DNA of 63,869 nt, counting the filler, from Reclinomonas americana ATCC 50394 (lineage: Eukaryota), in assembly GCA_048213135.1 (NCBI GenBank). It is 7 parts of 2 records of this genome, joined end to end, with 100 filler letters (N's around TTAATTAATTAA, not from the genome) between each part and the next. Parts side by side here need not be neighbours in the genome. Positions count along the whole stretch, not along the records: positions 42,599 to 51,654 come from PS015040.1; 6 more parts are not named here. One strand, 5' to 3'. Made by a program: the position numbers and the translations under genes. Under the pieces are notes generated by a model. The model was given only the letters and a program-made list of their open reading frames with translations. It was not told where the DNA came from and searched no databases. Positions 3,001 through 59,956 of the stretch are shown here, in pieces. The first letter of the stretch is position 1. The number at the start of each line of letters is the position of its first letter.

Positions 3001-6000
3001 TGTCGCACCGCGTGCGTCGATGGTCTGCCGACGAGATTCGCGAGCTGCACAAGCGGCGCTACCTGCTTCGTCCCGTCGGTCTGGAGCTGTTTTGCACCGA
3101 CGGTCGGACGTACCTGCTGCTGTTCCATTTGTCGGAGCGCGACGAAGTGCACGACCTCATCTTGTCGCGTCCACTGCCGAACCTCAACTACGGCAACTTC
3201 CTGATGGCCGACGGTGGCGCCGCACAGACCACCAACCGTGCGCGCAGCTTTGCTCGGCATTTGAAGATGTGGCTGCGTACGACGACGCAGCGGTGGCAGC
3301 GCGGCGAAATCTCCAACTTCCAGTACCTCATGTTCCTCAACACGCTGGCCGGCCGCACCTACAACGACCTCACGCAGTACCCGGTGTTCCCGTGGGTGCT
3401 GTCGGACTACCACAGCGAGGAGCTCAATCTCAACGACCCGAGCGTGTATCGCGACCTGACCAAGCCGATGGGTGCCATTGGCGCCGATCGTGCCGAGGCC
3501 TTCAAGATGCGCTACGCCGAGTGGGACGAGCCGGGTGTGCCCAAGTGGCACTACGGCAGCCACTACTCGACGGCCGGTGTGGTGATGCACTATTTGGTGC
3601 GCCTGGAGCCGTTTGCGACCCTCGCGCAGCAGCTGCAGAGTGGCCGCTTCGACCAGCCGGACCGCATCTTCCACTCGCTCGCCGACTCGTGGCTGTCGGC
3701 GTCGGAGCTGAGCATGACGGACGTGAAGGAGCTGATCCCCGAGTTCTTCTACCTGCCTGACTTCCTGGACAACATGAACGGCTTCGACATGGGCGAGCGC
3801 TCATCCGGTGTCTTTGTCGACTCGGTGCTGCTGCCGCCGTGGGCACACAACTCGCCGCGCGAGTTCATTATCAAGCACCGGCAGGCGCTGGAGAGCGAGT
3901 ACGTCAGCAAGAACTTGCACCACTGGATCGATCTCATCTTTGGCTACAAGCAGGTATGAGAGGATCTTGGTCGTTGGCCTCCATCTCCTCCGTTGTGCTC
4001 ATTCTTTCCTCTCTTTCCCGCAGCGCGGTCCCGCGGCCGAGGCAGCGCAGAATGTGTTCTACTTTTTGACGTACGAGGGCGCTGTGGACATTGACCAGAT
4101 CACCGACCCGAAGGATCGTGCGGCCGTGATTGCGCAGATCAACAACTTTGGTCAGACGCCACAGCAACTCTTCACCAAGCCGCACCCACAGCGCACAGTC
4201 AGCAGCTCGGCCGATCCGTTCTACGTGTACACTCACCCCGAGCATCTGACGCCCAAGGAGGTGCGCAAGGCCGGCGAATCGGTGTACGAAGTGCGCATCA
4301 ACTCGCTGGAGAAGGTGTTCTTTGCCGGTCCCAACGCCGTGATGATTCCACCCAAGTACAACAAGCTGGTGGCATTTGGCTTCCCGGACAACAGTTTGCG
4401 CCTCATTCGTGTGGCGAACGGGCGCACGCTGGAGGTCTACGAGGCGGCGCATGAGGGACAGGTGCGCATGAAACCACTGTCTCTCTCTCTCACACACACT
4501 ACAGCCTCGTGCTAATTGTTGTTTCGCCGACGCAGGTGTTGTGTGCGGCCATTTCCAGCGACGGCAAGATCCTGGCCACGGGCGGAGTGGACGGTATCGT
4601 GAGTGTGTGGCGTGTGGACAGACACGACGAGGTCGGTCGCAAGATTGTCCACTTGGCGCGCTTCTACGGGCACTCTGGCCCGGTGACCNNNNNNNNNNNN
4701 NNNNNNNNNNNNNNNNNNNNNNNNNNNNNNNNNNNNNNNNNNNNNNNNNNNNNNNNNNNNNNNNNNNNNNNNNNNNNNNNNNNNNNNNNNNNNNNNNNNN
4801 NNNNNNNNNNNNNNNNNNNNNNNNNNNNNNNNNNNNNNNNNNNNNNNNNNNNNNNNNNNNNNNNNNNNNNNNNNNNNNNNNNNNNNNNNNNNNNNNNNNN
4901 NNNNNNNNNNNNNNNNNNNNNNNNNNNNNNNNNNNNNNNNNNNNNNNNNNNNNNNNNNNNNNNNNNNNNNNNNNNNNNNNNNNNNNNNNNNNNNNNNNNN
5001 NNNNNNNNNNNNNNNNNNNNNNNNNNNNNNNNNNNNNNNNNNNNNNNNNNNNNNNNNNNNNNNNNNNNNNNNNNNNNNNNNNNNNNNNNNNNNNNNNNNN
5101 NNNNNNNNNNNNNNNNNNNNNNNNNNNNNNNNNNNNNNNNNNNNNNNNNNNNNNNNNNNNNNNNNNNNNNNNNNNNNNNNNNNNNNNNNNNNNNNNNNNN
5201 NNNNNNNNNNNNNNNNNNNNNNNNNNNNNNNNNNNNNNNNNNNNNNNNNNNNNNNNNNNNNNNNNNNNNNNNNNNNNNNNNNNNNNNNNNNNNNNNNNNN
5301 NNNNNNNNNNNNNNNNNNNNNNNNNNNNNNNNNNNNNNNNNNNNNNNNNNNNNNNNNNNNNNNNNNNNNNNNNNNNNNNNNNNNNNNNNNNNNNNNNNNN
5401 NNNNNNNNNNNNNNNNNNNNNNNNNNAGTGTGTTTGTGTCGTCACCGTGGTCGATGGTGCTGTCGGGCTCGGAGGACGGCACGGCCATTGTGTGGGACTT
5501 GAATCGACGGCGATTTGTGCGCCAACTCGGTCAGCTGCGTGTGGATGATGGCTTGCCTCGGCGCAGTCGCCTGCTGCACCAGCAGCAACTCGGTACTGCG
5601 GGAGGCGGAGGAGCGTCGGCCCAGCGAGCTGGCTCACCTGAGCCGGCCTCCAACGGCACGCCAGCCGAGCCACCGCGCCATCGCACCGGTCACGGCGGCA
5701 GTGCAGCGCCGCTGCATCCGCATCCGCAGGCCGTGTCGTGTGTGTACGTGAACGAGGACTCTGGTGATTTGATCACGTGCAGCAGTGGCACGCTGAACGT
5801 GTGGAGCGCCAATGGAGAACTGTTGCACTGCAAGCTCACGTCCCTGCAATGGCGCGAACGCATCACGGCGGTGACTGTGTCTCGCGGTCCGCCGTGGGAT
5901 GAGCGCAACATGATTGTGACGGGTCACCAGGACGGCGTGCTGCGTGTGTGGTCGGTTCTGCTGCCGTCGGACTCGGCCAAGTTTGAGCGTTCGCGTTCGC

Positions 6001-9217: not shown

Positions 9218-11681
<2,464 letters not shown>

Positions 11682-11930: not shown

Positions 11931-14900
11931 CTATCGCACTGCGAATGCTGTCACGAAGTTGTCTGCGCGCGAGGCCATGTAGATCAGCACCCGTGCAACA
12001 CAAAGACGACACTCATGGTGTAGGAGGTCGTAACGATACAGCGTCGCGTTGGCGGTCTTCCAGGGAGTCCCATTGCAGAATGCGATCGAATTGTAGCAGT
12101 GCTTCGTTGACATCGCCTTGGCCGTGATGCGCGCGGCCGACAATGATGGCGGCCTCCACGTGACGCGGCAGTCGCTCGAGAATAAGCTCGGCTTCGGACT
12201 TGGCCGCCGCGAAGCGCTGGCGACGAAGCTGACACTCAGCGGTACGCAGACGAAGCGAAACTGTACGGCTGACCACCGTCTCCGTCGACGGTTGTTTGTC
12301 TGCAGCAGCAACTACTTCAGGCTGTCGCGTGCATGCACACTGCAACAATTGGTCCTTCTTACACACCAAGTTTCTGCAACGCGTGCTGGAAGCAGCGGAG
12401 TGCCTGAGCATAGTCGCCAGCATCAATGGCGGCGTGACCTTGTCGTTCCCACTCCTGCGGATCGCGAACACAGGTCCATCAGAAACAACAGACACCACAG
12501 CAGCTCAGCGGCAGCAACTGACACTTGCCTCGATGTCTTCCGAAACAGGCAGCCCTTCTCCCATGCCACTCAGCATCGCGCCACCTTGTGCGACTTCTGT
12601 AAGCTCGCCAGCAAGCAGAGCAAAGTTGCCGTGTCGGGCAAAGTCAACGGCATTCTTCGCGTATTCGCAGAGTTGCGGATGTGGTGGTACGTGAGTGCAT
12701 TGCACTGACACACACACATAGAGAAACACAGGAGCGATGCACAAACCATGTGCAGCACCGAGTCGCACCGAAGCACCAGTTCAGGTTGCAGCCGTGCCAA
12801 ATAAAGCGCCGCTTCTCGATTGCCCTTTCTGTGGCCGACATCAGCGACGACTGTTTCAAGCAAGCCACGGTAGCAAAGTGACGCAACAAGGCAGCAATCG
12901 TCACAGGCAGCACGTGATTGTCAGCCTCCATGGCCACGGTGGCCGGATTGCACTCTGCGAGCAGTCGAACGCACTCCACAGATCCTTGCTGAGCTGCCAG
13001 GTGGATCGGCAGCCACGTGCGCGGATCCATCGCCAGTGCATAGTGGGGGGCGAATTCGAGAAGCGCGGCTAGCACCTCATAGTTGCCCTTGTTGGCGGCC
13101 AGATGTGCGGGACAGCGCTCGGCCTGAACGTGCACAGTGTCGGGACACAGCTCGCACACCAGCCGTACCAGAGCCGCCGTATCTTGCCGCAGTGCCAACA
13201 CGTGCAGAATTGTGAGAGACTCTTGAAACATGTGCACGCCCAGTGCAGGGTTCATGGTCAGCAGCGTGCGAATGGCCTCCATGTGGTTGCGAGCAGCGGC
13301 TACCAGCAGACAACAATGGCCGTCGCCGTCCTCCACCAGCGCCATTTCGATGCCACCGAACGCCAACAACAACTGCAATATCTCGGATCGCTGCTCCGTC
13401 CAGTGCTCGGCCAACACGCACAAATGAATGCAATATGTGCCAGCGTTATCGGGCAGCTGAATGGTGTTGAGGTCGGCGTCCAGCAAGATTGAGACGCACT
13501 CGGCGTGTCCACTCTGGCACGCCTGGTGGGTGGATCGATAGAAGACACTCAGGTGCGTCGCCGAATAATGTTGAGAATGCAACACACACATACCTGATGA
13601 ATCGGCAGACGACCGTCTCGCGAGGCAACACGAGCGCCAGATGGGGCACAGGCGAGCAGCATGCGCAGGACCGCTGCGTGGCCCTGCTGCGCAGCGAGGA
13701 AAATGGGAGTTCCGCCACGTGCCTCCTGCGCTAGAGCGCCTTCGGGCCATTCGGCAAGCAGACGTTCCACGGTGTCGTCATGGCCATTCTGCGCAGCAAA
13801 ATGCAGCGCTGTCCACTGGTCCTCTTCGACGCCGCGAACACGCTCCGGAGAAGCGCCTTCCAGCAATATCTCCAACATGCTCACGTGGCCAATGTTGGCG
13901 ACAGTGATCAGTGGCGTGCGCAAGCCCGCAAACCGGCAGTCTGCCAAGTCCGGGTGCTCCTGTAGCATCTGCTGGAATTTGTCGATCTTGCCGGCCACGA
14001 TTGCGCGCTCGAACGCGGCCACTGTATCGATCGAAATCAGCAAGATCGTGCGACTGTGAGTGACATGCGTCGTGGTGGACGCACCCACTGGCACGGGCAG
14101 CGTCATATTGGCAGACAATGCCGACTGCGAAGACGACGGCAACGACAGCAACGGCGACGGAGAGGGTGCAACATTGACCGAAGCGGAAGCTGACGCCGTG
14201 CCGGCAAGCTGCGCCGAATTCGGGAGCTCGCCGGCAAGCTGTGCGTGCCCCCTGTGACGTGCCACTTCCACTGGCGTGCGTCCGTCCGCATCCCTGACGT
14301 CCAGTGTCTCAGGCACGATGATAGCAAGCAGCAGTGCTGCTTTTCGATGTCCATTTTCACATGCCAAGTGCAGTAGCGTCGATCCTGCGCCACCACCACA
14401 TAATGTCAGCGATAAGAATGCACGTGCAAACAAGAATGCATGCATACCAGAATTTGTGCGGTGTCTCGCGGTTGCCGGTCGGCAGCGAATGAGTACAATG
14501 AGTGCCACTTCGTGACCAGCACTGCCGGAAAGAATGCGTGAGTACAGTTGAGCGCAGCACATCTTTCACAACCGACACCAGAAAACCTTGCTGCAAAGTG
14601 CACCGCCAGCCAACCGCGGTGATCAGCAATCTCACAAAGCTGTGCCGCCTGCTGCACCATGTCTTGAATCACAGAGGTATCGCCAACCTGCGCAGCTTCA
14701 TGCAGTGGACATTCGTCGTCGATCTCTACGACACGCGAGCCGTCGTTCGCCGCCGGTTGTGGCGCAGTCGCCACCGCGCTCGCCAGAGCCGACACTATGG
14801 CGGCGACGGATCCACCTTTGCCCTGCTGGTTCTCACTTTGTGGCAGTCGACCACCTCCACCGCTGCCCACTGCATCGGCATCCGAAACGAGTGAGTGACT

Positions 14901-17900
14901 TCACACTGCAACTGCACCGAAGTGACATGACACACAAGGTTCACGCACCGGCTTCACGAATCGCAGCATCGAGTTGTTGCTGCGAGCCACCGGCTTTTGG
15001 CCGGACAGCAGACGCATTGTTTTGTGGCATCAGGCTGCGCAAAATGGTGGCCAGTGGCTCGGGTGACATATTGAGCGGAACGCGGCCCTGCCGATCGGCC
15101 AGCGTGATGACTTCGGGTGCGCGCAGTGCCAGCTCGGTGGCAACCGCCACAAAGCCGCGTTGTGCTGCAATGTGGAGCGCACAGTAGCCATCGTCTGCCC
15201 GTGCTCGCACACAGTCAGGGTACGCAGCGCGCAGGAGGTCCACACAAGCCAGCGAATCGCTGCATGACACAAAGTGAGCCATCAACAGAAACAACACACA
15301 AGATCAGCGGTGACTCACCACTGGGCGGCAAAGTGGATAGGAAGCCACATGTTGGCCTCTGGCACTCGCGCAGCCTCCGGGCACCGACTCAAAATGGCCT
15401 TCACAGCAAGTGCATTCCCTTTTTCCGCGGCAAAATGCAGCGGCGTCCAGTCATTGGGCTGGTGCGGAGTCATCGCCGTTTCCGGGGCGCGGTCAAGTAG
15501 CAGCTCAATGACTTCGGCGTTGTCGGTAACCGCGGCCAAGTGGATGGGAAGACTGCCCTTGGCGTTCGGCAACAAAGCCATACTGGGATTGCAGTCCAGT
15601 AGCACTCTCATGACGTGCGGATATCCCTTCTGGGCGGCCACGTGGGTGCCGAGCGACTGTGATTGACCGCGCGGCACGAGGAGAGACTCGGGGAATCGTT
15701 CGGCCAAGTAGCGCACGGTGTCGGCATGCCCGTTCTGCACCGCCGCTTGGAGAGGCGTCCTTTGTCACAACAGATTATCAACGAACGGTGAGAGTTGCCA
15801 CACACTGCGAAAATCACTTGTCACTCACCGCCCGTCGTCACACTGGATCTTGTTGGCCTCCGGGCACGCCTCCACAATCACACGCACGCATTCCAGATGT
15901 CCGCCTTGCGCTGCCAGATCGAGACACGTGGCGCCGCCCTGTCGACAGGAGAGCGCGGTTGCATTATAGTTAGGTTGGTGAATAGCATACACACAAACAC
16001 ACACTAGAACGCGCTCCAACCTTGAGCTCCTGCATTAAGGCCATTGACGGATCGTACTTTAGCAGCAGTCGAACCACGTCCGAATAGCCGAACTGAGCCG
16101 CCAAGTGCGCACTGCTCCAGTTGAGCTGCTCGACGGTGCGAACCATGTCCGGATCGGCTGCCAGAAGCACTTCCAGGCACGCAACAGCGTTCTCCTCCGA
16201 CGCGGTGTGCAGTGGTAGGCGGCCGCGATAGTCCGCCGTGTACAGCATGCCCGGGAAGACGTTCAGCAGAGCCAATGCACACTTGGGCGAATTGGCTTTC
16301 GCGGCACAATGAAGCGGCGTAAGACCATTGGAGTCTTGCAGTTGACCAGCATCGGCGCCCATGTTGAAGCGTACGAGCACTTCGAGGATGGCCTCAACGC
16401 ACTCGTCGAATCCATTAAAGGCGGCCACGTGCAGCGGCGTCGGGAGTGCACTAAATGGACTGACAGCCAGCGCCAAGTGCGGCGCCGTGGCGAGAATGAA
16501 GCGAATGATTTCCGGCTGACAGTTCTGCGCGGCCACAATCACGGGCGAGGCCACCAAGACTTCTGGGTCGCGCAGCAGTCGCAGCTGCTCGGGGGTCTCC
16601 AGCAGCAGTCGCACAGCCTCCACGCTTCCGCACTGGCAGGCCAGCGGCAGTGGAGTCCAGTTCTTCGTGTCGGCAATGGTGACAGCGTCCGGCGCCAGCT
16701 CCAGCAGATACTTGATTGCTTCGGCATAACCAGAATACGCCGCCAAGTGCAACGCCAGTCGACCGCTCGAATCGGGGATTCGCAGCGTGTCGGGATCCAT
16801 CAGACCCAAGAAGCGACTGGCCACTGCATGGCCGTGCAGGCATGCCGTATGAAGTGGCAGGAGACTGGTGTCGCCGCGCGTGCGACGAGTCAGCGAGTGG
16901 TCCTGTCGCAGAAGCACAGACAGCACGGCCGCCTGCCCGCGCTCAGCGGCCGCGTGTGCAATCGAACCGCGTTTCGTTAGTCGATCAATCATCCCAGGCT
17001 GGGAACGCAGCAGCTGCATGACGAGCGGAACGTAGCCGCATCCAACGGCCACCTGGAACAGCTCGAACATATTCGATTCGGCAAGTACGAGGCTGCCCGG
17101 ACTCAGTCGGTGCAGCCCATGCAGACGCTCGGGGTCGTTACTCTTCGCCGCCGACACCACGCAGGCACCAAAGTCAGCTTCCGGCGTGCCGCCCACGGCC
17201 CACTGCAGCAGGAAGTCGTGATCGCGAGTATCGTCAACGGCGAAGCAGGAGAGTCGACCATCACGGCCGCCGACGAGCACACGGCCCAGCTGTCGTCCGT
17301 CGAGCGTTGGCGAAAGCGGCGCAGGCACCACACCGGATACACAGTCGGCTTGTCGCACGAAGCCACGCTCAACGCGCGGACGATTTTCCAACGAAAGCAA
17401 TCGCACCGCACCGTCGGCAGAGCTGACGGCCAGGAGCGGCAGAGCACTCGCCACACCCGACGGCACCATGCAAATACCACTAATGGGCGATCGCGCGACT
17501 CCGACACCGGCTTCTCGATGCACAGACGATGGCGGCTGTCGGAAGCGCTCCGCAGGTGACATGGACGATTCGAGATCGATGCCGTACCTTACCACCGTCA
17601 CCGAGCCGTCGCTCGATCCAATTACCAGTACCACCTCAAACGTCTGCACCACGACCTCGACGCACGACACTACAGCCTGGTGATTCTCACCCAGCCTATA
17701 CTCGCCCAACAGCATGTCGTCCATGTCGCTGCCGGAGAGATCGAGAAAGCGGAGCACATTGTCAAGTGCTGCTGTCACCAGCATAGTGCCGTCAAACACC
17801 GGCACCACACATATCACATAGTCGCCGTGCGGCAACATCTCGTGCAGTGGATCCAGCCACAAACTTGTTTTCCAGTCACCGCCACGCTCGCCACCGACAC

Positions 17901-20900
17901 TGCTGCTGCTGCTGCTGCTACCAGTGACCGCGTGGGGGCCTGGATCAGCTGGCGATTTGGCGCTCGAGGCGTCGCTGCTGTCCTTGAATTGCATCAAGCT
18001 CGCACTGATACCGGCAGAACTGGCCGTGCTCCGCACGCACAGAGTGGCATCGAGCAGTGAGCAGCGGAACACCGACAGACAGAGAACTGTGTCGAGCGAT
18101 GGCGGCGCCTCGATCTGCAGTAGTAGTTCTCCATTCTCTAGGTCGAACACTCGAACACCACCCTCACTGTCGCCGACGAATACGACACGATCGTCGGGCG
18201 AGATGGCCAACGCTGTCACCATGCGATTCGAGAGTGTGCTGGTCTGCGTAAAGTCCCACAGTAGCTCGCCGGTCTGGGTGCTGAAAACATGGCAGAGCGA
18301 GCCGGGACCGTGGCCACCCGTAACCACCAGCTCACCGTCGTGTGTAACCGCCATGGCATCACCAGCGGAGATGGAGACCGCCCCGCCGTCACTAATGTCG
18401 TCGAGACTTGGAATGGGCCACAGCAGCAGGCGACCATCCTGCGAGCCACTGATCACATGTCGACTGTCCATGGTGCCCTTGATGGTGTTGGTCGGCAGGA
18501 CATGCGCCTCGTACCGCCGATACACTTGACTACTGCCCGTCGCTGTGAGCGATACGTGACCGTCGGAGCCAGCAGCGGAAATCCAGTGACCGTCGGGTGT
18601 GAAGGAGATGGAGAGGATGTCGTCGTGTGCCTTGATTGTTTGCATACGGTCGCCAGTCAACAGCGACCAAACATAGATGCACCCATCGTCTGCAGCACCG
18701 ACAATCCTCTCTGCTTCCACTGACACATCAATGTCGTGAAACAGAGTCGACAGCGCCACGGTCTTGAGTGCAAACAATCGCCGCGCCTTCTTCAACGCCA
18801 CCTTGAGCAGATCCTTGCCACTGTCGCTGGACCGTTCGCATTCGTCCAGGCGCTGCATCACACCAGTAGAGTACACAGCCGTCTCCTTCCCAACGCCTCC
18901 AATAACAAGCAGATCACCGATCGAGCATCCAGCACAGCGTGCAGTCACAGGCAACGAGTTCCCTTGCAGCGGAGGCACACAGCGCATCGCAAAAACGCCA
19001 TTGTCGGTTGACAGCGACCATTGCTTCTCACCCGTTTCCACTGAAATGGCCCGAACCCCGTCGTCGTGACCGATCATCAGCGTGCGCCCGTCGGTGGAGA
19101 ACACCAGCGCCGAAATTCGGCCAGGCTTGTCAGGGCAGCCCGCATTGGGCGGTATTCCCGAGCGGCGCTCCCACTGCGGCAAATCCCACACGCCAACGTG
19201 GCCGGGTACATCGCCGCCAGCAGCCAGCATGCTGCCATCAGGAGACAGAGCCAGGGCGTGCGCGCTGCATTCGAATGGGTTCTTCAACCGGAACGTCTCG
19301 TGCCCGTCAACCAGGTGCCACATGACAATGTCGCCATTGTTGTGACCGCTGATCACCACCTCGCGGTTCGACCAAGCCGGATGGGCAACAACCGAACAGA
19401 GAACGGCCAGGTTGCATCGCATGCGCGACGGATACGGCAGCTTGGCATCGGTCATGTCGGCCTCTGAAAAATCAGTGTCGACGCAAAACGCCGTGTCCAA
19501 TGCCACATGCCGCAGGTCGGACCTCGCCAAGCTCGCGCGCTGCAAATTGGCGGTGGAGAGATCGGCATACGGAATGCGAATACCGTCCAGAATACGACCG
19601 GAGAAGGACACGTGCGCTCGGCACAGAATGGTGGCCGAGTTCGAGGCAATTGTCGCCAGCGACGCGTCTTCTCGCGAGGCGGCAATCACTCGCCACAGTC
19701 GCTGCTGCATGCGCTCGTTGCGGCGCACGCGCTCCGCAATCTGCGCCGTCAGACTCGTGTACCGCAACTCGGAGATGAAGTGGACATTCAGCACGTGTGC
19801 GCGCAGATCAATGTGACCGGAGAGCGTGTCAAAGTAATCGAGGTCCCACGACTTCAGCGCAAATACGTGACGCGCCAGGCAGTATTCGAGCAGCGACGGG
19901 TGCAAAAATGCCCACGCGCTGGTTCCCTGCCGTTGCACAATGGCACTGCAGTCGCGAATGGATCTGAGAGCGTCCGTCATGTACGGCAGAAAATCGACAC
20001 CCGTTGCACGAGTGGTTCCGCGAATGTGCATCATGGCCGCCAGCGACTCCAAGAAAGTAAAGCACAGGTCCGTATTCGGCCGTTGGTTGGGCGGCCGGCG
20101 ATTGCGTTCGCGCGCGATCCACTCGCGCACGAACACGTTCAGCACGTCCACTCGCAGCAGACGGCCGGCACGTACCGACATGGCCACGCGACCATCAATA
20201 CTGGCTGCAGGCACACCCTGGCGTCGACCGGCCGCGCCTTTCTTCTTTTGCTTCTCCAACAGTTGCGGCAGCACTTGTACCATGGTGGACAGCATGAACG
20301 GCGACGACTTGAGCACATCGGCGCCGTGCAGCGCCGCCAGCGCAACACGCAGATCGTCCAGCACTCTCCACGGAGATCGGGAGTTGGACGAAAGCGACGG
20401 CGGCGACGACAGTGCCGCAGCAGCGGAGGAGACCTCTGAGACAGGCATGTCGTCACCGGCCAGCAGCTGGCTGTTGCGAGTGCACATTGCCATGTAGTGC
20501 ACCAAGTACTCCTCGATCTGCGCTGGCGAGAACGGCACCAAATGTCGCACCACAAGACCGGAAAACGCAGACTGCAAGCTGGAGGCCCGTGACGAGGACT
20601 CGGCCGGTGCCGGCCTCTCGTCACCCTCGATCGGACTTGATTGGGGCTGCTGGTCAGCCACTGCATGCTGCTGTTCTTGCTGGAGCTGCTCACCGTTCTC
20701 GCCGCCGACCTGCACGGGAGCCAGCGACGCAGGTGGCGCGAACACATGTGTGTAGCCCGCGACCAGTCCGTCGGCAAAGTCACTGCGGCAAGTGATGATG
20801 ATTTTGACGTCGTCATATTGCGCGAGCTGTATGAGAGAACGCGTGGTGAGTGTGACGATGCATGCATGTGGTGGTGGCTCTGAGGCCGAACCTGGTTAGT

Positions 20901-23900
20901 GACAAAGAGATTGGCTGGCCGTTCCATGTCCTGCTGCCACTCGTCATAGCCATCGCACAGCAGCAGCAGGGGCAAATGTCGCAACTGCTGCACGTCATCC
21001 TCCTTGATGAATGGGTGCAGCTGCATGAGAGTTCCGGCCACAAGGTTGGTGGCCGGTTGCTGCAGGCTGGCCAGCGAAACACGCAGCGGCAGGCGTGCGG
21101 TGCCATCTGCGTGCTGCGCCAGCATCCGATTGGCCAGCACCGCCAAGCTCAGACTCTTACCGCTGCCGCCGTCACCGAGAACGAGCATTACACGTGCCGC
21201 TGGATCGGCCAGGAAGGTTTCAAACTGCACATCCACGAATGAGAAAGGCAATACTTAATGGTTCACAAAAATGCACAGTTACTACAGAAAGGAAGACAGT
21301 GTGCGGTGACCCTGACCGACACACAACACACCTCGTTCTGCAAACTCCTCTTGTCGGCGGCAAGCCTGGATGCTACGCACTCCAACGGAACATACAGCTC
21401 CAGTTCGCGTTGCATCTGCGGATTGTGCTGCAACTGCCAGGACTGTCGTTCGACAACTTGCGCCAGCTTCGCCTCCAAAGTGGTATACTGCACCAAGGTG
21501 TCGAACGGATCTGCAGCGTACATACGAGTGAGTCGCGCACGGCGTGGATGATGAAGCTCCACTGAGAGACAAAAGAGCGCTCACCACAACGGTACCGCTG
21601 CAGTCGGTCGAACCAACGCGGACTTTCCGCGTCACTGGGCACCTGCACCTCGAGGATGTGCAGGTACTTTGCCAGTTGCTCAAAAACGTGCTCCATGGCT
21701 TCGGCAGTGGACAGCTCCTCGTGGAACACACTGTTACGGATGTCTCTCATGCCCGCCACCGCGTCTCTCTGCCGTCCACAGTAAGCACAGCGAAAAAGAA
21801 GACTTTGACTGACTACGAGACCGCGATTCGCACACACGTACCACCACGGCGTCTGGCTCCAACAGCAACACAGTGCGGTCACAATGAATCGTGTTGTCCC
21901 AGTAACTCGCGATTGCTTCGTCGGCCGGGCGCACCGCCACGCGGCTGGGCAAGCGGTATCCGAGGAAGCAGATGAGCGACGACAGGAAGGTGAGTTCCAT
22001 GGAATCCGCATTGGCCTCCTCATCGAGCAATCGCAGTTGCTCCATTATCACGTCGCGAGATTTACCGGCAGAGGCCTGTGGACGGCAAGACTTGAATTTC
22101 TTGCCATCATCTGACGCGGTCCACCAGTATCTGCGATGTGTCGTTGTGTATCAGAATCCAGTGCAACGCCCACGGGTGGAGAAGAAGAGAAGCGCATGGC
22201 CAAACCTCCAGTCATGGTCCGAGAGAGCTGCAGGATCTCGGTCGGGTACAATCAGCCGGTAATCGAAAGGTGGCGACTCGCTTGCCGTGCGCCTCTTGAA
22301 GTCACGATACCGGTGTACTGCGTGAAACCGCAGTGCCGGAAGCACAACCTGACTGATGGCGCAGTCCAATCGCAACCACAGCTCGCGTTTGCGACTGTGC
22401 AATAATCGGGAGTTGAGAATCATGAAAGTAGACAAGCAAGCAAGAGATGCGGCACGTACCTTGCGGCCACACTCGCCGCGTGTGCCGACTTGCTGTCGGT
22501 GAGAGCTGCGCCAAGACTCACAGCCCACTCTGCGTAGCCAGCGGTTGAAGAATCAGCAAGTGACAAGAACACAATGAAATCATGACAACGGCGACGAAAC
22601 TGTCAAAGCACGCCAGCGGCGTAGTGTGCGCCAAGTTGCGCAGAGCAGATGTGATGTTGTTGCCGGCCAAGGCCATGGTAAACGCCTGGTCCACCATGTA
22701 GTAGGTGTCCGGTAATGTGCACAGCAGGAACGGCACAAAGAGGCGGCGTGAGGCCCATTGGCGCATCATGTCCATGATGCGGCGCATGCCAATGTCCGGT
22801 GACCACGGCGCTATTGTGCCAAGAGCCGGCGACGGTGATGCGTCGTCGCCCGCTGACCTCTCGCGGTCCGCTTCAGCACTGCCGCCGAGAGCGAGCGCGT
22901 GTTGGCCGCGCTTGGGAGCGCCAGCAACTGGCAGACCCTCCAACAGATTGGCGTCTGCCTCGTCAACTCGAGCGGCGCGTGGAAAGTGGATCTCCCACTC
23001 GCGACTGATGGTCACTAGTTGCGCGAAGCGGCTGGCCCACGTGAGGCACTCGTCGACAGACGGAATCGACCCGGGTTGGCCAGCTTGGATGATGCGCTCC
23101 CGCTCCGACACCATCCACGAAGCGAGAACGCCACAAACGTGTTCCCACGAACCAAACGACCCTTGAAATTGGTCCACGGCGGCCGCCGCAATGTGTGCAA
23201 AGCACTCGGTCAACAGCGCAGGCAGGCGACACAGCGCCAACAGTGCCGGCGACGCTTGCAACAGCGTCAGTTTGCTGATGGCACTGGCGCCAATCTCCAC
23301 CACCGGACTCGAATCATCGTTGGAGAGCTGCAGCTCGTCAATGGCCGACACCAACTCATCGTCGGCAAGTGGCAACAAAAGACGCTGGACAAGCCACTGC
23401 TGGTGTACGAGCGTGCCGGCCACTGCTGTCGGCCACATCACTTGCACGTAGTCGTCCTCGGAGGTGCCGAGTTGAGCCGCATACTCTGGTCGGCACACGA
23501 TGATGACCTTGACGTTCTGGTACTGCAACAACTGCAGGCGCCACGGGCAGACGGGTCAGCAGCAGAAGATATTGAAAAAATGACACACCTCGAGCACACA
23601 CAACGCAACTCCGTCTCTGGTAAAAATGTGCTCCTCAATGTTGGCGCTGTCAAAGCCGTCGACGAGCAGCAGCAGCGGCTGTTGGCGCAAACGATCGACA
23701 TCACTGGCCGAAAAGTCGCCCGAGTACAACTTGAGCGCCTCCGGAAGCAGTTGACTGCGCAGGCGATCCGCCGGCAGCTGCAACAGGTGCAGCGGAATGT
23801 ACACTGGCACTCGGCACTGCGAAAGCCTCTCCGACGTGTCGCCCTCGTGAAGAACGCGGCGAGCCAACTCCACCGTGGTGCGAGCCAGCACGTGTGATTT

Positions 23901-36476: not shown

Positions 36477-36993
36477 GATTATTGTTGTGGTTGTGCTTGT
36501 TGTTGTTGCTGAGGTGGTTGTCTTGGCTCACAAGGTAGGTGTGAATGATTGAACCAACCTCTGCGATGTTGGCGTTTTATGCAGCCGCGGCGATCGCCCG
36601 GCGGGTGGGAGCATTGTGATCTGCGATGCACGCACAAAACCGAACTCTGCGGACAGACAGGAGGCTCAAATTGACGGTCGGTCGACGATGCACACTGTCG
36701 CGACGTGCTGGCGGTGGGCAGGCGCGGGTGGGGTGGAGGACGGGGTGGAGGGGAGAGAAAGGGTGGGAGAGGAGGGCGGCGACTGCATGCGAAAAATGAA
36801 ACACGGACCAAATTGCAATTATCGTCGTTGAAGAGGAGTTCCACTTCGATATCGTGGCCAAGAGGAATCAGGCTCGCCGTACCAAAGCACATCTCCAGCC
36901 AAGACGCCGACGGCGGTGTTTCGGAGTTGGTCGACGAATTGCGTGCAAATTCTCGCGCAATCACTCCCACGCAATCACACGCACGCACACACA

Positions 36994-37842
36994 ATGGAAG
37001 CTGAGGTGCGCTCGTGCGGATTCATGTCTCCTGCAGTCTGCGTGTGTTTCACTTGGGAATGCACAGCACACACAGATCTTTGAGGGGCACACTGGCGACG
37101 TGAAGTGTGTCACCGTCACTCCCGATGGCCAGCATGTGGTGAGCGGGAGCGAGGACAAGACTGTGCGCGTTTGGTCGTTGGCCACTGGCGAGCAAGTGCA
37201 CAAACTGCGTGGACACACTGGGGAGGTGCTCTCTGTCGCTGTCGCTCCCGACAGTGAGCACATTGTGAGTGGCAGCGATGACTGCACGATTCGTGTGTGG
37301 TCACTGGCCAGTGGGAAGGAAGTGCGACGATTGGAGGGGCACTGGAATTCGGTGAACTCTGTCGCTGTCGTCATTCCCGATGGTGAGTTCATTGTGAGTG
37401 GCAGTTCCGACAACACACTGCGGGTGTGGTCGCTGGCGACAGGAGAGCAGGTGGGACGAATTGAGAAGAACATTGGCTTGCTTTGGTCCGTCGCCGTTGC
37501 TCCCGCTGGAACGTTCATCGTGAGCGGGAGCAGTAGAAACGAAGTGCAAATGTGGTCCACGGACAATGGGCAGGAACTGCGACTGTTCAGTGGACACACT
37601 GACGGGGTGTACTCCGTCGCTGTCACTCCCGACAGTCAGCACATTGTGAGCGGGAGCGATGACTGCACGATTCGTGTGTGGTGTGTGGCGAGCGGTGAGG
37701 AATTGCGGCGGGTGAACGTGCACCCTGACTGTGCGCGCTCGATCGCCATCACGCCCGATGGTCTGCACATTGTGAGTGGATATTGGAGTCACTCAGTGCA
37801 TTTGTGGTCGCTGGCTAGTGGAGATGAAATGCTGGTGTTGAA
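36994..37842 (+). CDS. WD40-repeat-only protein (high internal repeat similarity); 3' truncated
   Basis: 4-codon first exon MEAE, then repeats GHTG.V..VAVTPDGQHIVSGSDD.TVRVWSLASG. Confidence 0.9.
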
Positions 37843-37973
37843 NNNNNNNNNNNNNNNNNNNNNNNNNNNNNNNNNNNNNNNNNNNNTTAATTAATTAANN
37901 NNNNNNNNNNNNNNNNNNNNNNNNNNNNNNNNNNNNNNNNNNCTCATTCTCACTCCCCCCCCCCCCCCCCCAG

Positions 37974-45527: not shown

Positions 45528-46465
45528 AGAGAGAGAGAGAGAAACCAAGTCAATCATCGACGAGAGAGAGACTCGCTCACGCTATCCACTGCGGTAGAAA
45601 GACAATCTGAAATCGGGATAGAGAATGAAGAGATCGCACGCACCCTGGCAAAGTCCGTGTTGAACTTGACGGCCAGCAGCTCCATCTCCGCACGCTGTGG
45701 ATGAGGCGATACATCGAACGTCTTCTGCAGGATCCTTCGTTCTTCATCCGAGAAGCTGCAGCGGCGATGATGGGAGCGAAGAATGAGGAACACGAACACT
45801 GATGAAGTGCACTTTGAAAGCATGCAGCAGGGAGAGAGACCGAGAGACAGAAAGGAGTGCAAGGAAACCATCAATCAACTCGCACATACCGCTTCAACGG
45901 ACCACGCTTGCCGGCGAGTTGCGTGGCTTTCGGCGTCTTGCGCTTGTTCTGTAACAAAAATCACCAATCGCAACACACCAATGCAAAGAATCAGCAATCA
46001 ATGACCAACGCGACACCCCACAGGCGGCACATGCGTGTGTGTGCGTATGCGCGTGTGAGTGTGAGTGTGTGTGGGCCATGGCTCGACATTCACCTGCCTC
46101 TGCGCCCTCGACGTACGCCGCTTGATCTCACCGCCCGCCTGCGCATCGCCACCTTCCCCACCTTCGCCGGCGCCACCGTCGCTTTCATCGCCATCATCAT
46201 CATCATCATCATCGCGCAGACTCTCTGCATCATCATCCTCGTCTTCCTCGTCACCATCGTCGCGCTCACCGTCATCGTCGCCCTCGTCGTGCGCTTCACC
46301 CGGCAGCCACGCCCACAAATCCGGTCTCGACAGTCCATCCCATTGCATCGTCGGCAGCGCCGGGAACATGTCATCCGGCAACGGCGGCAGCTGCGACTCT
46401 TGCACCAGCGGCGGCAACGCAAACTGCGGCGACATGCCTCCGTCCATGTCACGCTCGCCCTCCAT
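42599..46465 (-). CDS. Homeodomain + TFIIS-N-like domain + PP1-docking motif protein (PNUTS/LUMINIDEPENDENS-like); 3' truncated
   Basis: Homeodomain helices 1-2 (KRFSDEERRILQKTFDVSPHPQRAEMELLAVKFN); PNUTS-like LDRQGGL..LRRLMRE..RDRLLEVVEKT..IIKDWV..RLPFSIDVIRQTEFGRSIQR; RKRVRWASADKLEQVRVF; Pro-rich tail. Confidence 0.72.
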
Positions 46466-46757
46466 CACTCACACGCGCGCGCACACACAGGCAACACACA
46501 GTCTTCGTTTTCGTTTGGGGTTTCACACAACGCTGAGCAGTGGCCTCTTTGCACTTTCACTGTGACTTTGCTGCGGCGGCCAACGTGAAAGTGCCCAAAC
46601 TGACGCCCAGAGGGTATCGCGCAGAAACCAAACGCCCTGCGACTTTCTCTGCGTCGCGCGCACACACACAGATGCTTGTCGGAAGCGGGTGCGGGGGGTT
46701 GCAGCCTCTCGACCAAAGTGCGCTTGATAAAAGTGCAATCAGTCGATCCGCCAGGCG

Positions 46758-49129
46758 ATGAAATCCTCTCGTGTGAGGATGCAACGTGTGCGCGTTCTCT
46801 GCCAGCACCTCGAGCACAATCAACGCGAGTTCTTCAACTGGAGTCGCACGCACAGTGTGCGACCACGACATGCAGTGTATGAGTGCGCGACAGCAGATGA
46901 AGTAGAGTGCGTGTTGTGCGAGTGTGCACAGCGGCGATGGAGAGTGCGGTGAGCGATGCATGCATGCGCAGGGAGAAGGAGAGAGGTGGCACGTTCATGT
47001 TGCGATGTTGCAGTGTGATGGGCAGTGGTTTGTCGCCAAATGCACTGGGATTTGGGGAGGAATGCATGCTGCGATTGGTGAACGATGATGCGAGGGCGCG
47101 TGTCAAGATCGATGCGGCGAGCATGCGAGTGCGTGTTCCGGCGGGCATGACAGTGGGCGATTTGGTGAGTCTCCCAAATCACGTTCACAGAGCCTGCGCT
47201 GATCGATGTTGCATCGCCAGACAGAGCTGCTGGCGTCGCACGACCTCACGCTCCAGAACTTTGGCTCGATCTCGTTGCAAGTTGCGCATTAACAACAGCA
47301 GCAGCAGCAGTGGGCGTTCGGCCTCCAGTATTCATCGTTCTCTCTCTCTCTCTCCCTCGCTGCAGACGGTCGCTGGCTTTGTGCAAGCTGGTGTGCACGG
47401 CTCGGGAGCACGCATTCCGCCTGTCAACGACATGGTGGTGGCGATGCAGGTGGTGACTCCGGCGCTCGGGGTGATGGAGTTGAGTGATGAAACTGGCGAC
47501 GGCGATCTCTTCCGGCTGGCCAAGGTGGGCATGGGTGCGCTGGGTGTGGTGACCGAGGTGACGGTGCAGTGCGTGCGACGACAGCAGCTGCGTGAGTGGG
47601 TGTGGGTCGTGCGACCGGAGCATGTGCGACAGCGGCATGCGCATTGGTTGCGTCTCTTTCGGCACGTGCGCTACATGTGGTATCCGTACGTGTCGGAGGC
47701 GGTGGTGGTGGTGGCGCTGGCGCCGGTGGAGGTGGAGGTGACGGAGGAGGATGTGGGGGATGTGGGGTGCGGGGATTCTCGGCAAGGTGAGGGGAAAGTG
47801 GGTGAAGAGGGTAAACAGGGGAAGGAGTGGGGAAGGGCAAGAGTGTGAAGAAGGGGCAAGGGTTGATGGTGGTCACTTGCTCGAAGAGAGAGTTGTCGTT
47901 GAAGAGCTGGAGGAGAAGAATGAGAGGCAATGACTGGTCGAAGAGTGGTGAAAGAAAATGGAGGAGGAAGAAGTGTCGATGCGTCGTCGTTGCGCAAGAG
48001 TGAAGTGGTAAGGAAGAGGACTGGTGACTTCGAGGAGAGAGTTGTTGTGGAAGAATAAGGGAGGAAGGATGCGGGGCACTGATTGTCGAATAGCAATTCA
48101 AGAAAAAGGAGGAGGAAGAAGTGATGATGCGTCGTCATTGAGCGAGAGGAGTATGAGGACGGTGCCATAAACAACGAGGAAGTAGAAGAGTTGCACAGTC
48201 ATTGCACTCGAGGAGAGAAGGAAGAGTGGCTTGGAGAGAGAAACTGTGCCTCATGCACTCATTCCTCGCGCTTCAGACTGGGACGACCCACTGGCGCCAC
48301 TGCGCAACCTCCTGCCGGCCGGCGTCACCCCCAAACAGCCGAATTCTCTGGCCAGTGTTCGCGACGCGGTGCTGCTGGAGTGCGGTGGGGCCATGCTGTC
48401 GGTCGATTTTGTGGCGGCAGTCAATCGGGCCGAGGTTGAGTGCTACCGGCGACTGGCACGACCATTCTCGCAGCCGCGTGTCGGCTGGCCGGACCAGCTG
48501 CTGTCGTTTGAGTGTGGCGGTGAGCAGCGTGTGTGCGAGGTGGCGTTCCCGTGCGGCACCTTGGAGGAGCCGTCGCTGCGCGATCTCGACTACGTCACGC
48601 GCGTGCTGCGCCTGGTGGAGGAGCACCAGCTGCCGGCGCCGGCGCCGATTGAGCAGCGATGGACGTGCGGCTCCAGTAGCGACATGAGCCCAGCCGCCGG
48701 CAAGGCGACAGACTTGTTTTCGTGGGTCGGCATCATCGTGTATCTGCCGGAGGAGAGGAGGGTGGAGGAGGCCAAGTTGCGGCAGCGTGCGAGTGCCGTG
48801 TTTGACCAGTACGTGGCCGCGTGCCGCGACGAGCTGTGGGACGAGTTTGAGTGTGTAGAGCACTGGGCCAAGACGGAGGGACCGCCGACGAATGATGACG
48901 CGGGAGAGTCGGCGTGGAGGAAGCGAGTGCAGAGGAGGTGAGGCGGGGGGTGTTTCTCTTGTGTGCGCACACAAGTGTGTGTGTGTAACGGATGGAGTGT
49001 TGCGGGCATCAGGNNNNNNNNNNNNNNNNNNNNTGTCCACTGGATCGTTTCGCTGAGGCGCGGAGGAGAGTTGATCCGACGGGCATGCTGAGCAATGCGC
49101 TGGTGGATCGGATTTTGGCGGCGAGGTAG
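46758..49129 (+). CDS. GLDH: L-galactono-1,4-lactone dehydrogenase/oxidase family FAD enzyme (plant GLDH-type), multi-exon
   Basis: NWSRTH, GSGLSPN, LTLQNFGSISLQTVAGFVQAGVHGSG, LFRLAKVGMGALGVV, HVRYMWYPY, FECGGEQ, PAPAPIEQRW, SWVGIIVYLP, EHWAK and RRELDPTGMLSN. Confidence 0.92.
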
Positions 49130-57354: not shown

Positions 57355-58512
57355 TCACCAAAACATCCCAGCTGGATCAACACGGCAGCGATGCATCACG
57401 ACTTCCGCATCCTCCACGATGAAACAGCGCAGCACCATCTCGGGAAGACACCGAGAATCCTCTCCCTCTTCCTGCATCTCCCACACGCCGCGCTGGGCCA
57501 AGCGAGCACAGTCGACCTCGAGACGAGCGAGGCCATACGGCGTGGACCACACGCGCATGGTGCCGTCCGCGCTGCCACTCACAATGTGCTGACCATCGGG
57601 AGAGACGGCAAGAGACCACACCTCATCCGTGCGTCCCTCCAGTCGTCGCACTTCCTCGCCACTCGCCAGCGACCACACTCGCACTGTTCGGCAAAGCATG
57701 CCATCAGCACTCACAACGTGCTGGCCATCGGGAGTGACGACCAAGTGCCGCACAGAGCCAGTGTGTCTCTCCTTCAGCCGTCGCACTTCCTCGCCGCTCA
57801 CCAAAGACCACACTCGTATGGTCATGTCAAGGGCGCCACCTCCACTCACAATGTACTGGCCATCGGGAGTGACAGCAACAGATTCGACGGTGAACAAGTG
57901 CCTCTCCAGCCGTCGCACTTCCTCACCACTCGCCAGGGACCACACTCGCACGGACTTGTCGACACTCCCACTCACAACATGCTGACCATCGGGAGTGACA
58001 GTGATGGACATCACACAATTAGTGTGCCCCTCCAGCCGTCGCACTTGTTCTCCAGTCGACAGTGACCACACACGCACTGTTCCGTCCATGCTCCCACTCA
58101 CCACATGCTGACCATCGGGAGTGACAGCGACAGACATCACAACGTGAGTGTGTCCCTTAAACCGTCGCACCTCCGCACCGATCCTCACCCACGACCACAC
58201 TCGCACTGTTAAGTCACTGGCCCCGCTGACAATGAAGTGACCGTCGGGTGTCGTGGTAACCGAGTTCACGATATGAGTGTGTCCCTCCAGTCGTCGTACT
58301 TCTTCGCCACTCGTGAGGGACCACACCCGCACTGTCTCGTCAGCAGCCCCACTCACAACGTGCCGACCGTCGGGAGTGATGGCGACAGTCATCACCAGCC
58401 TGGTGTGCCCTTTCAGTACCTGTTGCGCAAGACACTCACGGTGAGGTGCACGAGGAGGCAAAGAGTGTCCACGAGAAGGCTAGAGCACACGAAAACGAAC
58501 CCTCGTCGTCAT
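57355..58512 (-). CDS. WD40-repeat-only protein with conserved C-terminal tail, tandem copy 1
   Basis: First exon MTTR, seven near-identical WD40 repeats, tail STPYGLARLEVDCARLAQR..CLPEMVLRCFIVEDAEVVMHRCRVDPAGMFW. Confidence 0.92.
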
Positions 58513-58807
58513 TGCGTGTGTGGGTGTGAGAGAAATAAGGGATGGATGAATTTGACGGAATGTCAACAATAGTTTTGTCGCCTCACCGCATGCGCTTCTC
58601 CAATCTCCCACTTTGCTCATCATGCTGCCGTGCATCTTGAACCTACTCCCTTTTCCACAAGACTCGATTTATTATTCTACTTGGTCATCAAGACAGCTGT
58701 TTCTTGTTTGTTGGTGAACGATTGTTGTTGTTGACAGAAAGCAACATCAAGAAGAGCAAGGAACTAACACACAGACTGCAGGAAACCAGAGAGTTCTTGC
58801 CAGTGTC

Positions 58808-59956
58808 TCACCAAAACATCCCAGCCGCATCAACACGGCAGCGATGCATCACAACTTCCGCATCCTCGACGATGAAACAGCGCAGCACCATCTCGGGAAG
58901 ACACCGGCAGTCCGGTTCTTCTCCCTCTGTCTCCCCCTGCATCTCCCGCACAGCGCGCTGGGCCAAGCGTGCGCAGTCGATCTCGAGACGAGCGAGGCCA
59001 TACGGCGTGGACCACACGCGCACGGTGCCGTCCGCGCTGCCACTAATAATGTGCTGACCATCGGGAGAGACGGCGACAGACAACACCCCTTCAGCGTGTC
59101 CCTCCAGTTGTCGCACTTGCTCGCCACTCGCCAGCGACCACACGCGCACTGTCTTGTCGCTGCTCCCACTCACAACGTGCTGACCATCGGGAGTGACGAC
59201 CAAGGACCGCACAGCGCCAGTGTGTCTCTCCTCCAGCCGTCGCACTTCCTCGCCGCTCGCCAAAGACCATACGCACATGGTCATGTCAAGGATGCCACCT
59301 CCGCTCACAATGTACTGGCCATCGGGAGTGACAGCAACACATTCAACGGTCCAAAAGTGCCCCTCCAGCCGTCGCACCTCCTCACCGCTCGCCAACGACC
59401 ACAATCGCACAGACTTGTCGGCACTCCCACTCACCACATGCTGACCATTGGGAGTGACAGCGACAGACGTCACAGCATTAGTGTGCCCTTCCAGCCGTCG
59501 CACTTGTTCTCCACTTGCCAGTGACCACACAAGAACAGTCTTATCATAGCCTCCACTCACCACATGCTGACCATCGGGAGTGATAGCGACAGACGTCACA
59601 GCATTGGTGTGTCCCTTAAACCGCTGCACTTGTTCTCCACTCGCCACGGACCACACTCGCACTGACTTGTCCGTACTGCCACTCACGATGTGTTGACCAT
59701 CGGGAGTGACGGCGACCGATGACACCCCCCAAATGTGCCCCTTCAGTCGTCGTACTTCTTCTCCGCTCGCCAGCGACCACACCCGCACGGTCTTGTCTGA
59801 ACTGCCGCCGACAATGTGCCGGCCGTCGGGAGTGACGGCGACAGACTGCCCCTGTCCACTGTGCCCCTTCAAGACCTGCACTCACGGTGAGATGCACGAG
59901 GAGGCAAAGAGTGTCCACGAGAAGGCAAGAGCACACGAACGAACCTTTGTCGTCAT
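58808..59956 (-). CDS. WD40-repeat-only protein with conserved C-terminal tail, tandem copy 2
   Basis: First exon MTTK; same intron position, repeat count and tail as copy 1. Confidence 0.92.

Follow-up and report, generated by a model that had tools for sequence, protein, structure and literature searches.

L-galactono-1,4-lactone dehydrogenase, abbreviated as GLDH or GalDH, is held to have replaced L-gulonolactone oxidase (GULO) because it does not make H2O2, and alanine at position 113 is regarded as an invariant hallmark of the dehydrogenase (PMC4396506, PMC11099136). According to Boverio et al. 2024 (PMC11099136), GalDH has Ala113 as a strictly conserved residue. When it was changed to glycine (A113G) in two ancestral GalDHs, the oxidase kcat rose by 15-200-fold and kox by 70-300-fold, to GULO-like values (PMC11099136). 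Removing the methyl group of Ala113 opens a path for O2 to C4a of the flavin, and structure 8QNC has a water/O2 site at C4a (PMC11099136). The A113G enzymes kept their full cytochrome c activity (PMC11099136). A second described system is the glycosomal L-galactonolactone oxidase of Trypanosoma, which uses O2 in the last step of ascorbate synthesis and is located in a peroxisome-derived organelle; a peroxisomal targeting signal on this ascorbate enzyme has been found in few other Euglenozoa (PMC9512073). Here, we describe a gene of the GLDH clade from Reclinomonas americana ATCC 50394 whose product has glycine at position 113. The gene lies in a stretch of 63,869 nucleotides from assembly GCA_048213135.1, which was analysed as a whole and which we call the window. 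With slightly more confidence than doubt, we propose that it encodes a soluble, O2-capable enzyme that has left the mitochondrial inner membrane, and that the peroxisome is its likeliest single address.

The gene occupies positions 46758-49129 on the + strand. It has 6 exons, with GT-AG boundaries at all 4 complete introns, and it is the only GLDH locus within the 63,869 nucleotides. All 15 of the matches to exon 5 (48277..48937, +) in a search of a large protein collection were L-galactono-1,4-lactone dehydrogenases. Among solved structures, the ancestral GalDH 8QMY was matched by exon 5 with E = 3.3e-47 and by exon 4 with E = 4.9e-37, while VAO structures other than GLDH matched at E = 5e-5 or worse. 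Exon 5, which encodes the ALO/cap domain, also matched the Pfam family ALO (24.9 bits, with a cut-off of 23.1). Exons 1, 2, and 4 did not match any Pfam family, FAD_binding_4 included, when scanned singly; the domain that binds flavin adenine dinucleotide (FAD) is divided over 4 exons. The modelled protein is at most 44% identical to any fetched sequence, or up to about 50% for exon 5 alone. We did not find close relatives: the best match among 90% clusters was 50% identical over exon 5, and full matches in 22 metagenome loci were 39-49% identical. Among the 150 relatives listed of 466 representatives, the best identities were 46-57%.

We number residues as in vGalDH, by alignment to P0178 (the sequence of 8QNR chain). 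Exon 2 (47014..47164, +) encodes the motif GSGLSPN, and its leucine (TTG, 47030-47032) aligns to position 56, which is the site of the covalent FAD histidine in GULO and ALO. Besides Leu56, the window protein retains Cys340, Glu386, Arg388, and Gly413, whose equivalents are all in exon 5. Cys340 has a role in the substrate site, and Glu386 and Arg388 reportedly do as well. Gly413 also has a role in the substrate site (PMC11099136). Judging from this alignment, the gene encodes a divergent VAO-type flavoenzyme of the GLDH clade, with a predicted FAD site of the non-covalent type and an L-galactonolactone site whose residues are kept.

At the gate position, 113, the window protein has glycine instead of alanine. 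This residue contacts the N5-C4a edge of the flavin. The glycine codon (GGC, 47263-47265) lies in exon 3 (47221..47280, +), which encodes LQNFGSI. We counted the residue at this position in the 212 motif-bearing members of a set of 237 sequences (a redundant set, with near-identical cluster members and many plants) and found Ala in 182, Ser in 21, Pro in 6, Gly in 2, and Thr in 1. We also aligned the window protein with 110 fetched relatives of at least 300 residues. Column 113 of this alignment has 92 rows (Ala 62, Ser 21, Pro 4, Gly 2, Thr 2, and Phe 1), with misalignment in the Phe row and in one of the two Thr rows. The two Gly113 sequences of the 212 are the window protein and P0041, which is from the transcriptome of the choanoflagellate Didymoeca costata (EukProt). 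By these counts, we consider Gly113 to be real and rare, and Ala113 is less invariant in the family than the literature states. A literature search on the gatekeeper residue did not find a published report of natural Gly113 in GLDH, in the text that was available. An earlier note on this DNA, made from the sequence alone, had identified a GLDH-clade enzyme with leucine at the covalent-FAD histidine position and a natural glycine at the gate (QNFGSI), and had described A113G as an oxidase switch. The alignment confirms both residues, and PMC11099136 backs the switch.

The serine forms of the gate (P0021, P0118, P0057, P0059, and others) comprise a clade that includes the diplonemid Namystynia and a cluster that contains a Nannochloropsis protein. 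We did not meet any discussion of the O2 reactivity of a serine gate in the available text of the literature, and this form has seemingly never been assayed.

The window protein has a second uncommon residue at position 128, just before HG[ST]G, which is alanine in most sequences and valine here (GTG, 47393-47395, in the motif AGVHGSG). It is encoded by exon 4 (47366..47786, +), along with the remainder of the FAD domain. Val128 was found in both of the proteins with a Gly gate, in 5 of the 6 with Pro, in 2 of the 182 with Ala, and in none of the 21 with Ser. The two Ala113/Val128 proteins (P0029 and P0139) are immediate relatives of the Pro113 group. In a careful tree, built with columns 113 and 128 masked, the window protein pairs with P0020 (support 96/97), which comes from a metagenome, has both Ala113 and Ala128, and shows a clear hydrophobic segment at its N-terminus. 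The Didymoeca protein is placed apart from the window protein, in the unresolved backbone of this tree. Because the window protein pairs with P0020 and the Didymoeca protein is elsewhere, the Gly113/Val128 pair looks as if it was gained more than once. A clade of the window and Didymoeca proteins was not rejected by the approximately unbiased test (p = 0.94, with a quick tree), and the window protein shares 11 rare residues with the Didymoeca protein, which is no excess over the 10 that it shares with other sequences. Whichever tree holds, the pairing of residues 113 and 128 looks functional.

The N-terminus also sets the window protein apart from most of the family. Its first 26 residues (19 if counted from the second ATG) precede the conserved NWS, with which the FAD domain begins, and given our gene model, it lacks a hydrophobic segment: the best hydropathy of any 17 residues is -0.51. 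We defined complete N-termini as having a Met start and at least 15 residues before NWS, which gave 69 in the family. Of these, 48 contain a 17-residue stretch with a mean hydropathy of at least 1.2, which is presumed to be the inner-membrane sorting segment. Where the gate is Gly, Pro, or Thr, the hydrophobic segment is absent from 6 of 7 proteins, and where the gate is Ala or Ser, from 15 of 62 (Fisher p = 0.0025, ignoring relatedness). The sole exception is GLDH from the foraminifer Nonionella stella (P0101), which has a Pro gate and yet has a strong hydrophobic N-terminal segment. The lack of a long presequence or membrane anchor, which the earlier note had also reported, therefore holds in the only defensible gene model. 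In these comparisons, the occurrence of Val128 with gates other than Ala or Ser, and of anchor loss with changes at the gate, strengthens the idea of a functional shift.

One Pro113/Val128 homolog, of the P0008 type, is encoded by an intronless gene for 536 amino acids (L004:840-2450, +). It lies tightly between a gene of the NAD-dependent epimerase / GDP-mannose-dehydratase family (L004:1-597, -) and a hybrid histidine kinase gene (L004:2541-4436, -). Since this reading frame is intronless and lies between an epimerase gene and a histidine kinase gene, the Pro113 group looks bacterial.

As the published A113G mutants reach GULO-like oxidase rates, O2 reactivity of the window enzyme is a reasonable inference by analogy. 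We propose that a soluble enzyme would oxidise L-galactono-1,4-lactone to ascorbate and pass the electrons to O2, which would yield H2O2. It would have left the inner-membrane site in mitochondria at which cytochrome c is readily available. Like the engineered A113G enzymes, it would probably still be able to use cytochrome c to some extent.

The N-terminus contains a candidate address for such an enzyme. Type 2 peroxisomal targeting signals (PTS2) are defined by the pattern [RK]-[LVI]-x5-[HQ]-[LAF], in which position 5 is hydrophobic and which lies among the first 40 residues of the protein (PMC7710942). The nonapeptide RVRVLCQHL (46785..46811, +) fits this definition, with Leu at position 5, and it comprises residues 10-18 of the protein, or residues 3-11 if translation begins at the second ATG. 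In the first 30 positions of a protein of this composition, R[LVI]x5HL would match by chance at a rate of 0.18%, and the fuller pattern at about 0.1%. Per-residue rates of these motifs were similar in the six-frame translation of the stretch; Arg-rich segments may raise the chance rate, perhaps by a few-fold. None of the 375 fetched proteins that start with Met has a PTS2-like motif in its first 40 residues. We tentatively suggest that RVRVLCQHL directs import into peroxisomes via PEX7, which makes the peroxisome the single most likely destination, and catalase there would take the H2O2. The complete scenario, in which a GLDH was naturally turned into an L-galactonolactone oxidase (by Gly113 and Val128, with non-covalent FAD) and was moved to peroxisomes by a new PTS2, is possible, and we hold it with reserve.

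The C-terminus of the window protein (...ILAAR) is not a type 1 signal (PTS1). Across 223 complete C-termini in the family, we found one canonical PTS1 and 6 loose matches, which include -SSL in the Didymoeca protein. The canonical PTS1 is in P0057, an anchorless GLDH homolog with Ser113 that ends in -AKI. The ending -SSL is the PTS1 of diatom thiolases (PMC7710942). Apart from the window protein, the only eukaryotic enzyme with Gly113 may thus have a peroxisomal signal as well, but of type 1. We take this as a lead rather than a test, and -SSL in Didymoeca and -AKI in P0057 may be part of a wider peroxisomal pattern. GLDH has been reported in two choanoflagellates. The PTS2 route was lost in C. 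elegans, Thalassiosira pseudonana, and Galdieria sulphuraria (PMC8172628).

The 5' end of the gene matters for the reading of the N-terminus. Exon 1 (46758..46948, +) has two in-frame ATGs, at 46758 (MKSSRVRMQRVRV...) and at 46779 (MQRVRV...), followed by the Arg-rich N-terminus and the beginning of the FAD-binding domain (NWSRTH...). Homologs align to exon 1 only from about 46812-46836 onward. The reading frame is stopped upstream by an in-frame TAA (46728-46730), so it cannot be extended in that direction without splicing. On the minus strand, a head-to-head neighbour begins at 46468. Its first exon (46001..46468, -) encodes part of an acidic protein, scores 0.32 bits/codon, as known exons do, and does not match any Pfam family; all of the + frames across it score negative. 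About 290 bases separate the start codons of the two genes, and this is the space for the promoter and 5' untranslated region of the GLDH gene. The 5' end is therefore boxed in, as far as can be judged from the sequence, by the in-frame TAA and by the coding neighbour. An upstream open reading frame (ORF) of 29 codons (46672..46761, +; codon score -0.13) ends with a TGA that overlaps the first GLDH start (ATGA). This ORF could cause translation to start at the second ATG (46779) instead, and the Arg of the PTS2-like peptide would then be residue 3. The peptide encoded by the first exon of the neighbour is very acidic and Pro-rich, with a (GAT)n run. A + strand ORF across this exon (45818-46588), with a poly-Ile "transmembrane" stretch, was rejected as the antisense of the acidic exon: the stretch is an (ATC)n repeat, and the ORF scores -0.07 bits/codon versus 0.32 for the minus strand.

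At the 3' end, the readable part of the last exon (49037..49129, +) encodes PLDRFAEARRRVDPTGMLSNALVDRILAAR, in frame over 49037-49126, with a TAG stop at 49127-49129. The fifth intron has its donor GT at 48938, and its acceptor is in or beside a 20-N assembly gap (49014..49033), which hides the acceptor of the last exon and possibly its first codons. The 494 modelled codons contain no stops and no frameshifts. Exons 2-5 score 0.29-0.44 bits/codon, and known exons of the stretch score 0.18-0.44. The stretch that holds the gene is eukaryotic in character (58% G+C, short GT-AG introns), with 3091 N in gaps.

Several considerations weigh against a peroxisomal oxidase. On the side of the oxidase, Val128 might partly refill the space opened by Gly113 and keep O2 out, if the two side chains touch. 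This is the strongest reservation about the oxidase reading. Cysteine at motif position 6, on the side of the address, falls outside the stricter PTS2 consensus. Only 8 residues lie between the end of the motif and the conserved NWS. The charge (+4) and hydrophobic moment (0.45) of the segment are within the range of the homologs' presumed mitochondrial presequences, and many kinds of signal might have been noticed in an N-terminus. The motif was found in 0 of 68 homolog N-termini in its strict form (with one loose internal match), and no relative is closer than about 40-45% identity. The gene's codon score is lowest in exon 1 (-0.08 bits/codon), although this is the best of the three frames there. 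Part of the association between gate and anchor comes from the bacterial-looking Pro113 clade, where absence of the anchor is trivial. Other residues on the flavin side also matter for O2 reactivity (Boverio et al., PMC11099136). A survey lists the craspedid choanoflagellate Monosiga brevicollis among species without most PEX proteins, which is a difficulty only for such a host (PMC8172628). Literature that links galactonolactone dehydrogenase with the terms peroxisomal and PTS2 was not found, nor did we find a paper that contains the peptide strings for which we searched. The earlier note had argued that two changes agree on a peroxisomal oxidase. The gate change that it described is solid, but for the address, PTS2 is just one way to read the 18-residue segment, and the agreement was overstated. 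RVRVLCQHL fits the PTS2 motif at 46785-46811, as that note had it; among the homologs, PTS2 and Gly113 were not seen to co-occur.

The same 18 residues could instead be a short matrix-type presequence that is rich in Arg, with the PTS2 match as a by-product. The enzyme would then be a soluble mitochondrial protein that uses cytochrome c, O2, or both. We view this as a credible minority alternative, close behind the peroxisome in likelihood. Mitochondria are the clade's ancestral location (PMC4396506), and the A113G enzymes are still fully active with cytochrome c (PMC11099136). The first 20 residues of the window protein have a net charge of +4, 1 acidic residue, and a moment of 0.45, as compared to medians of +3, 0, and 0.48 for 67 homologs. 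The Gly113 enzyme of Didymoeca has an N-terminus of 78 residues that is rich in Arg, Leu, and Ser and has no anchor. However, the 26 residues before NWS extend only about 13 beyond the mature plant-type N-terminus of the 8QMY construct, and the hydrophobic sorting segment that is present in 48 of the 69 complete N-termini is missing. With translation from the second ATG, the first 20 residues carry a net charge of only +1. Also, a full PTS2 match would be expected by chance at about 0.1-0.2%, or perhaps a few-fold more often in Arg-rich sequence. The enzyme might also have no address at all and remain in the cytosol. This would fit with the short extension and the lack of an anchor or PTS1, and other anchorless homologs with N-termini of 22-30 residues do exist (P0051, P0108, P0113, and P0155). 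We consider it improbable, as a free oxidase that makes H2O2 in the cytosol would be unusual, and both the PTS2 match and the positive charge would be coincidences.

The gene model itself could mislead us in two ways. If an unseen 5' exon supplies an ordinary presequence and anchor, then the PTS2-like peptide is internal and inert. The 5' end is known only from gene prediction, the assembly is gappy (3091 N), and there are AG acceptors at 46734, 46743, 46755, and 46778. We enumerated all in-frame combinations of ATG, donor, and acceptor from 46300, and only one candidate exon, 46446-46561 (donor GTGACT), adds a sizeable peptide, which is rich in Ser, Thr, His, and Arg and has a mildly hydrophobic end. 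However, this candidate lies in CA-repeat sequence, scores -0.17 bits/codon, overlaps the start of the minus-strand exon (0.32), and has a weaker donor than the gene's other introns. Only 290 bases separate the two start codons. The N-termini of homologs match nothing upstream, although presequences rarely align. We judged all of the combinations to be unlikely, and we consider an incomplete model to be unlikely overall. Alternatively, Gly113 might be a base-calling error, or the gene might be drifting without function. A single base separates GGC from GCC, so the distinction between Gly and Ala depends on one position of a gappy draft assembly, and exon 1 is odd in its low codon score and its four Cys in 14 residues (46878-46925, +; YECATADEVECVLCEC), where the helix of relatives is rich in Glu and Lys. 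We consider an artefact or decay to be very improbable: the 494 codons have no stop or frameshift, every catalytic residue is kept, exons 2-5 score 0.29-0.44 bits/codon, and the Gly113/Val128 pair recurs in an independent transcriptome sequence, which would not be expected from error.

What is new here is the natural oxidase-type gate in a GLDH, together with the co-varying second site and the loss of the anchor, in the window and in one choanoflagellate. As a set of sequence features, this part is solid. A natural GLDH with the oxidase-enabling glycine would imply that nature can make this switch with no covalent histidine. Residues 113 and 128 form a directly testable pair for the control of O2 reactivity in VAO-type flavoenzymes. 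If the PTS2 works, this would be a clean case of one enzyme that changed its electron acceptor and its compartment together. Were it peroxisomal, ascorbate synthesis in peroxisomes would have arisen independently a second time, in addition to the glycosomal GULO-type enzyme of trypanosomatids.

The window also contains other genes. A cluster of ORFs with NACHT, WD40, and ankyrin-repeat domains (15973-21254, -; 12647-14565, -; 36800-37891, +; and 57358-59881, -) looks like an NLR-like expansion. It includes an uninterrupted ORF of 1641 residues, with WD40 and ankyrin repeats, that adjoins a NACHT ORF. Three WD40 ORFs of about 360 residues have very regular repeat arrays and lie near the NACHT and ankyrin genes. 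A BEACH/PH-BEACH gene (2748-4512, +) has no fetched relative with more than 57% identity, and the matches to its BEACH domain are scattered across a heterolobosean, a malawimonad, an amoebozoan, animals, and fungi. A phosphoglucomutase/phosphomannomutase gene (9709-11440, -) is divided into small exons.

We return to the known systems. The window protein is like GLDH and the ancestral GalDH (8QMY) in its clade, its fold, and residues Leu56, Cys340, Glu386, Arg388, and Gly413. It differs in having Gly113 and Val128 instead of alanine at both positions, and in lacking a long presequence or anchor. The A113G change is also said to have been made in Arabidopsis GalDH, by Leferink in 2009. In the engineered A113G enzymes (vGalDH and sGalDH; Boverio 2024; 8QNC), the change is the same and Leu56 and Gly413 are kept as well; in the window protein, the change arose naturally and stands beside Val128 and many further substitutions. 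The natural oxidases have a Gly/His pair at positions 113 and 56 (PMC11099136), whereas the window protein is a Gly/Leu enzyme. As compared to GULO and ALO, it lacks His56, has Gly413 instead of Asn (which goes with the use of gulonolactone), and is placed among the GLDHs. From its sequence, the window protein may work like an oxidase, but it is not a member of the GULO/ALO group.

Its closest counterpart in these features is P0041 from Didymoeca costata. Both proteins have Gly113 and Val128 and lack a hydrophobic N-terminal segment. However, they are only 38% identical and are not sisters in the careful tree, and P0041 has an N-terminus of 78 residues, no PTS2, and the ending -SSL. The earlier note had drawn a parallel to the trypanosomatid enzyme, which is apt as an analogy but goes no further, as the Trypanosoma enzyme belongs to the GULO clade (PMC4396506) and has a C-terminal PTS1 rather than a PTS2. 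As for the signal itself, the peptide SQRLQSIKDHLVESRS from the yeast thiolase POT1 (PMC12173945) shares R-[LV]-x5-H-L with the window peptide, as well as a hydrophobic residue at position 5 and a location near the initiator Met. Unlike PTS2 cargo such as POT1, the window protein has Cys at position 6 of the motif, and its motif abuts the fold and was not found in the 68 homolog N-termini.

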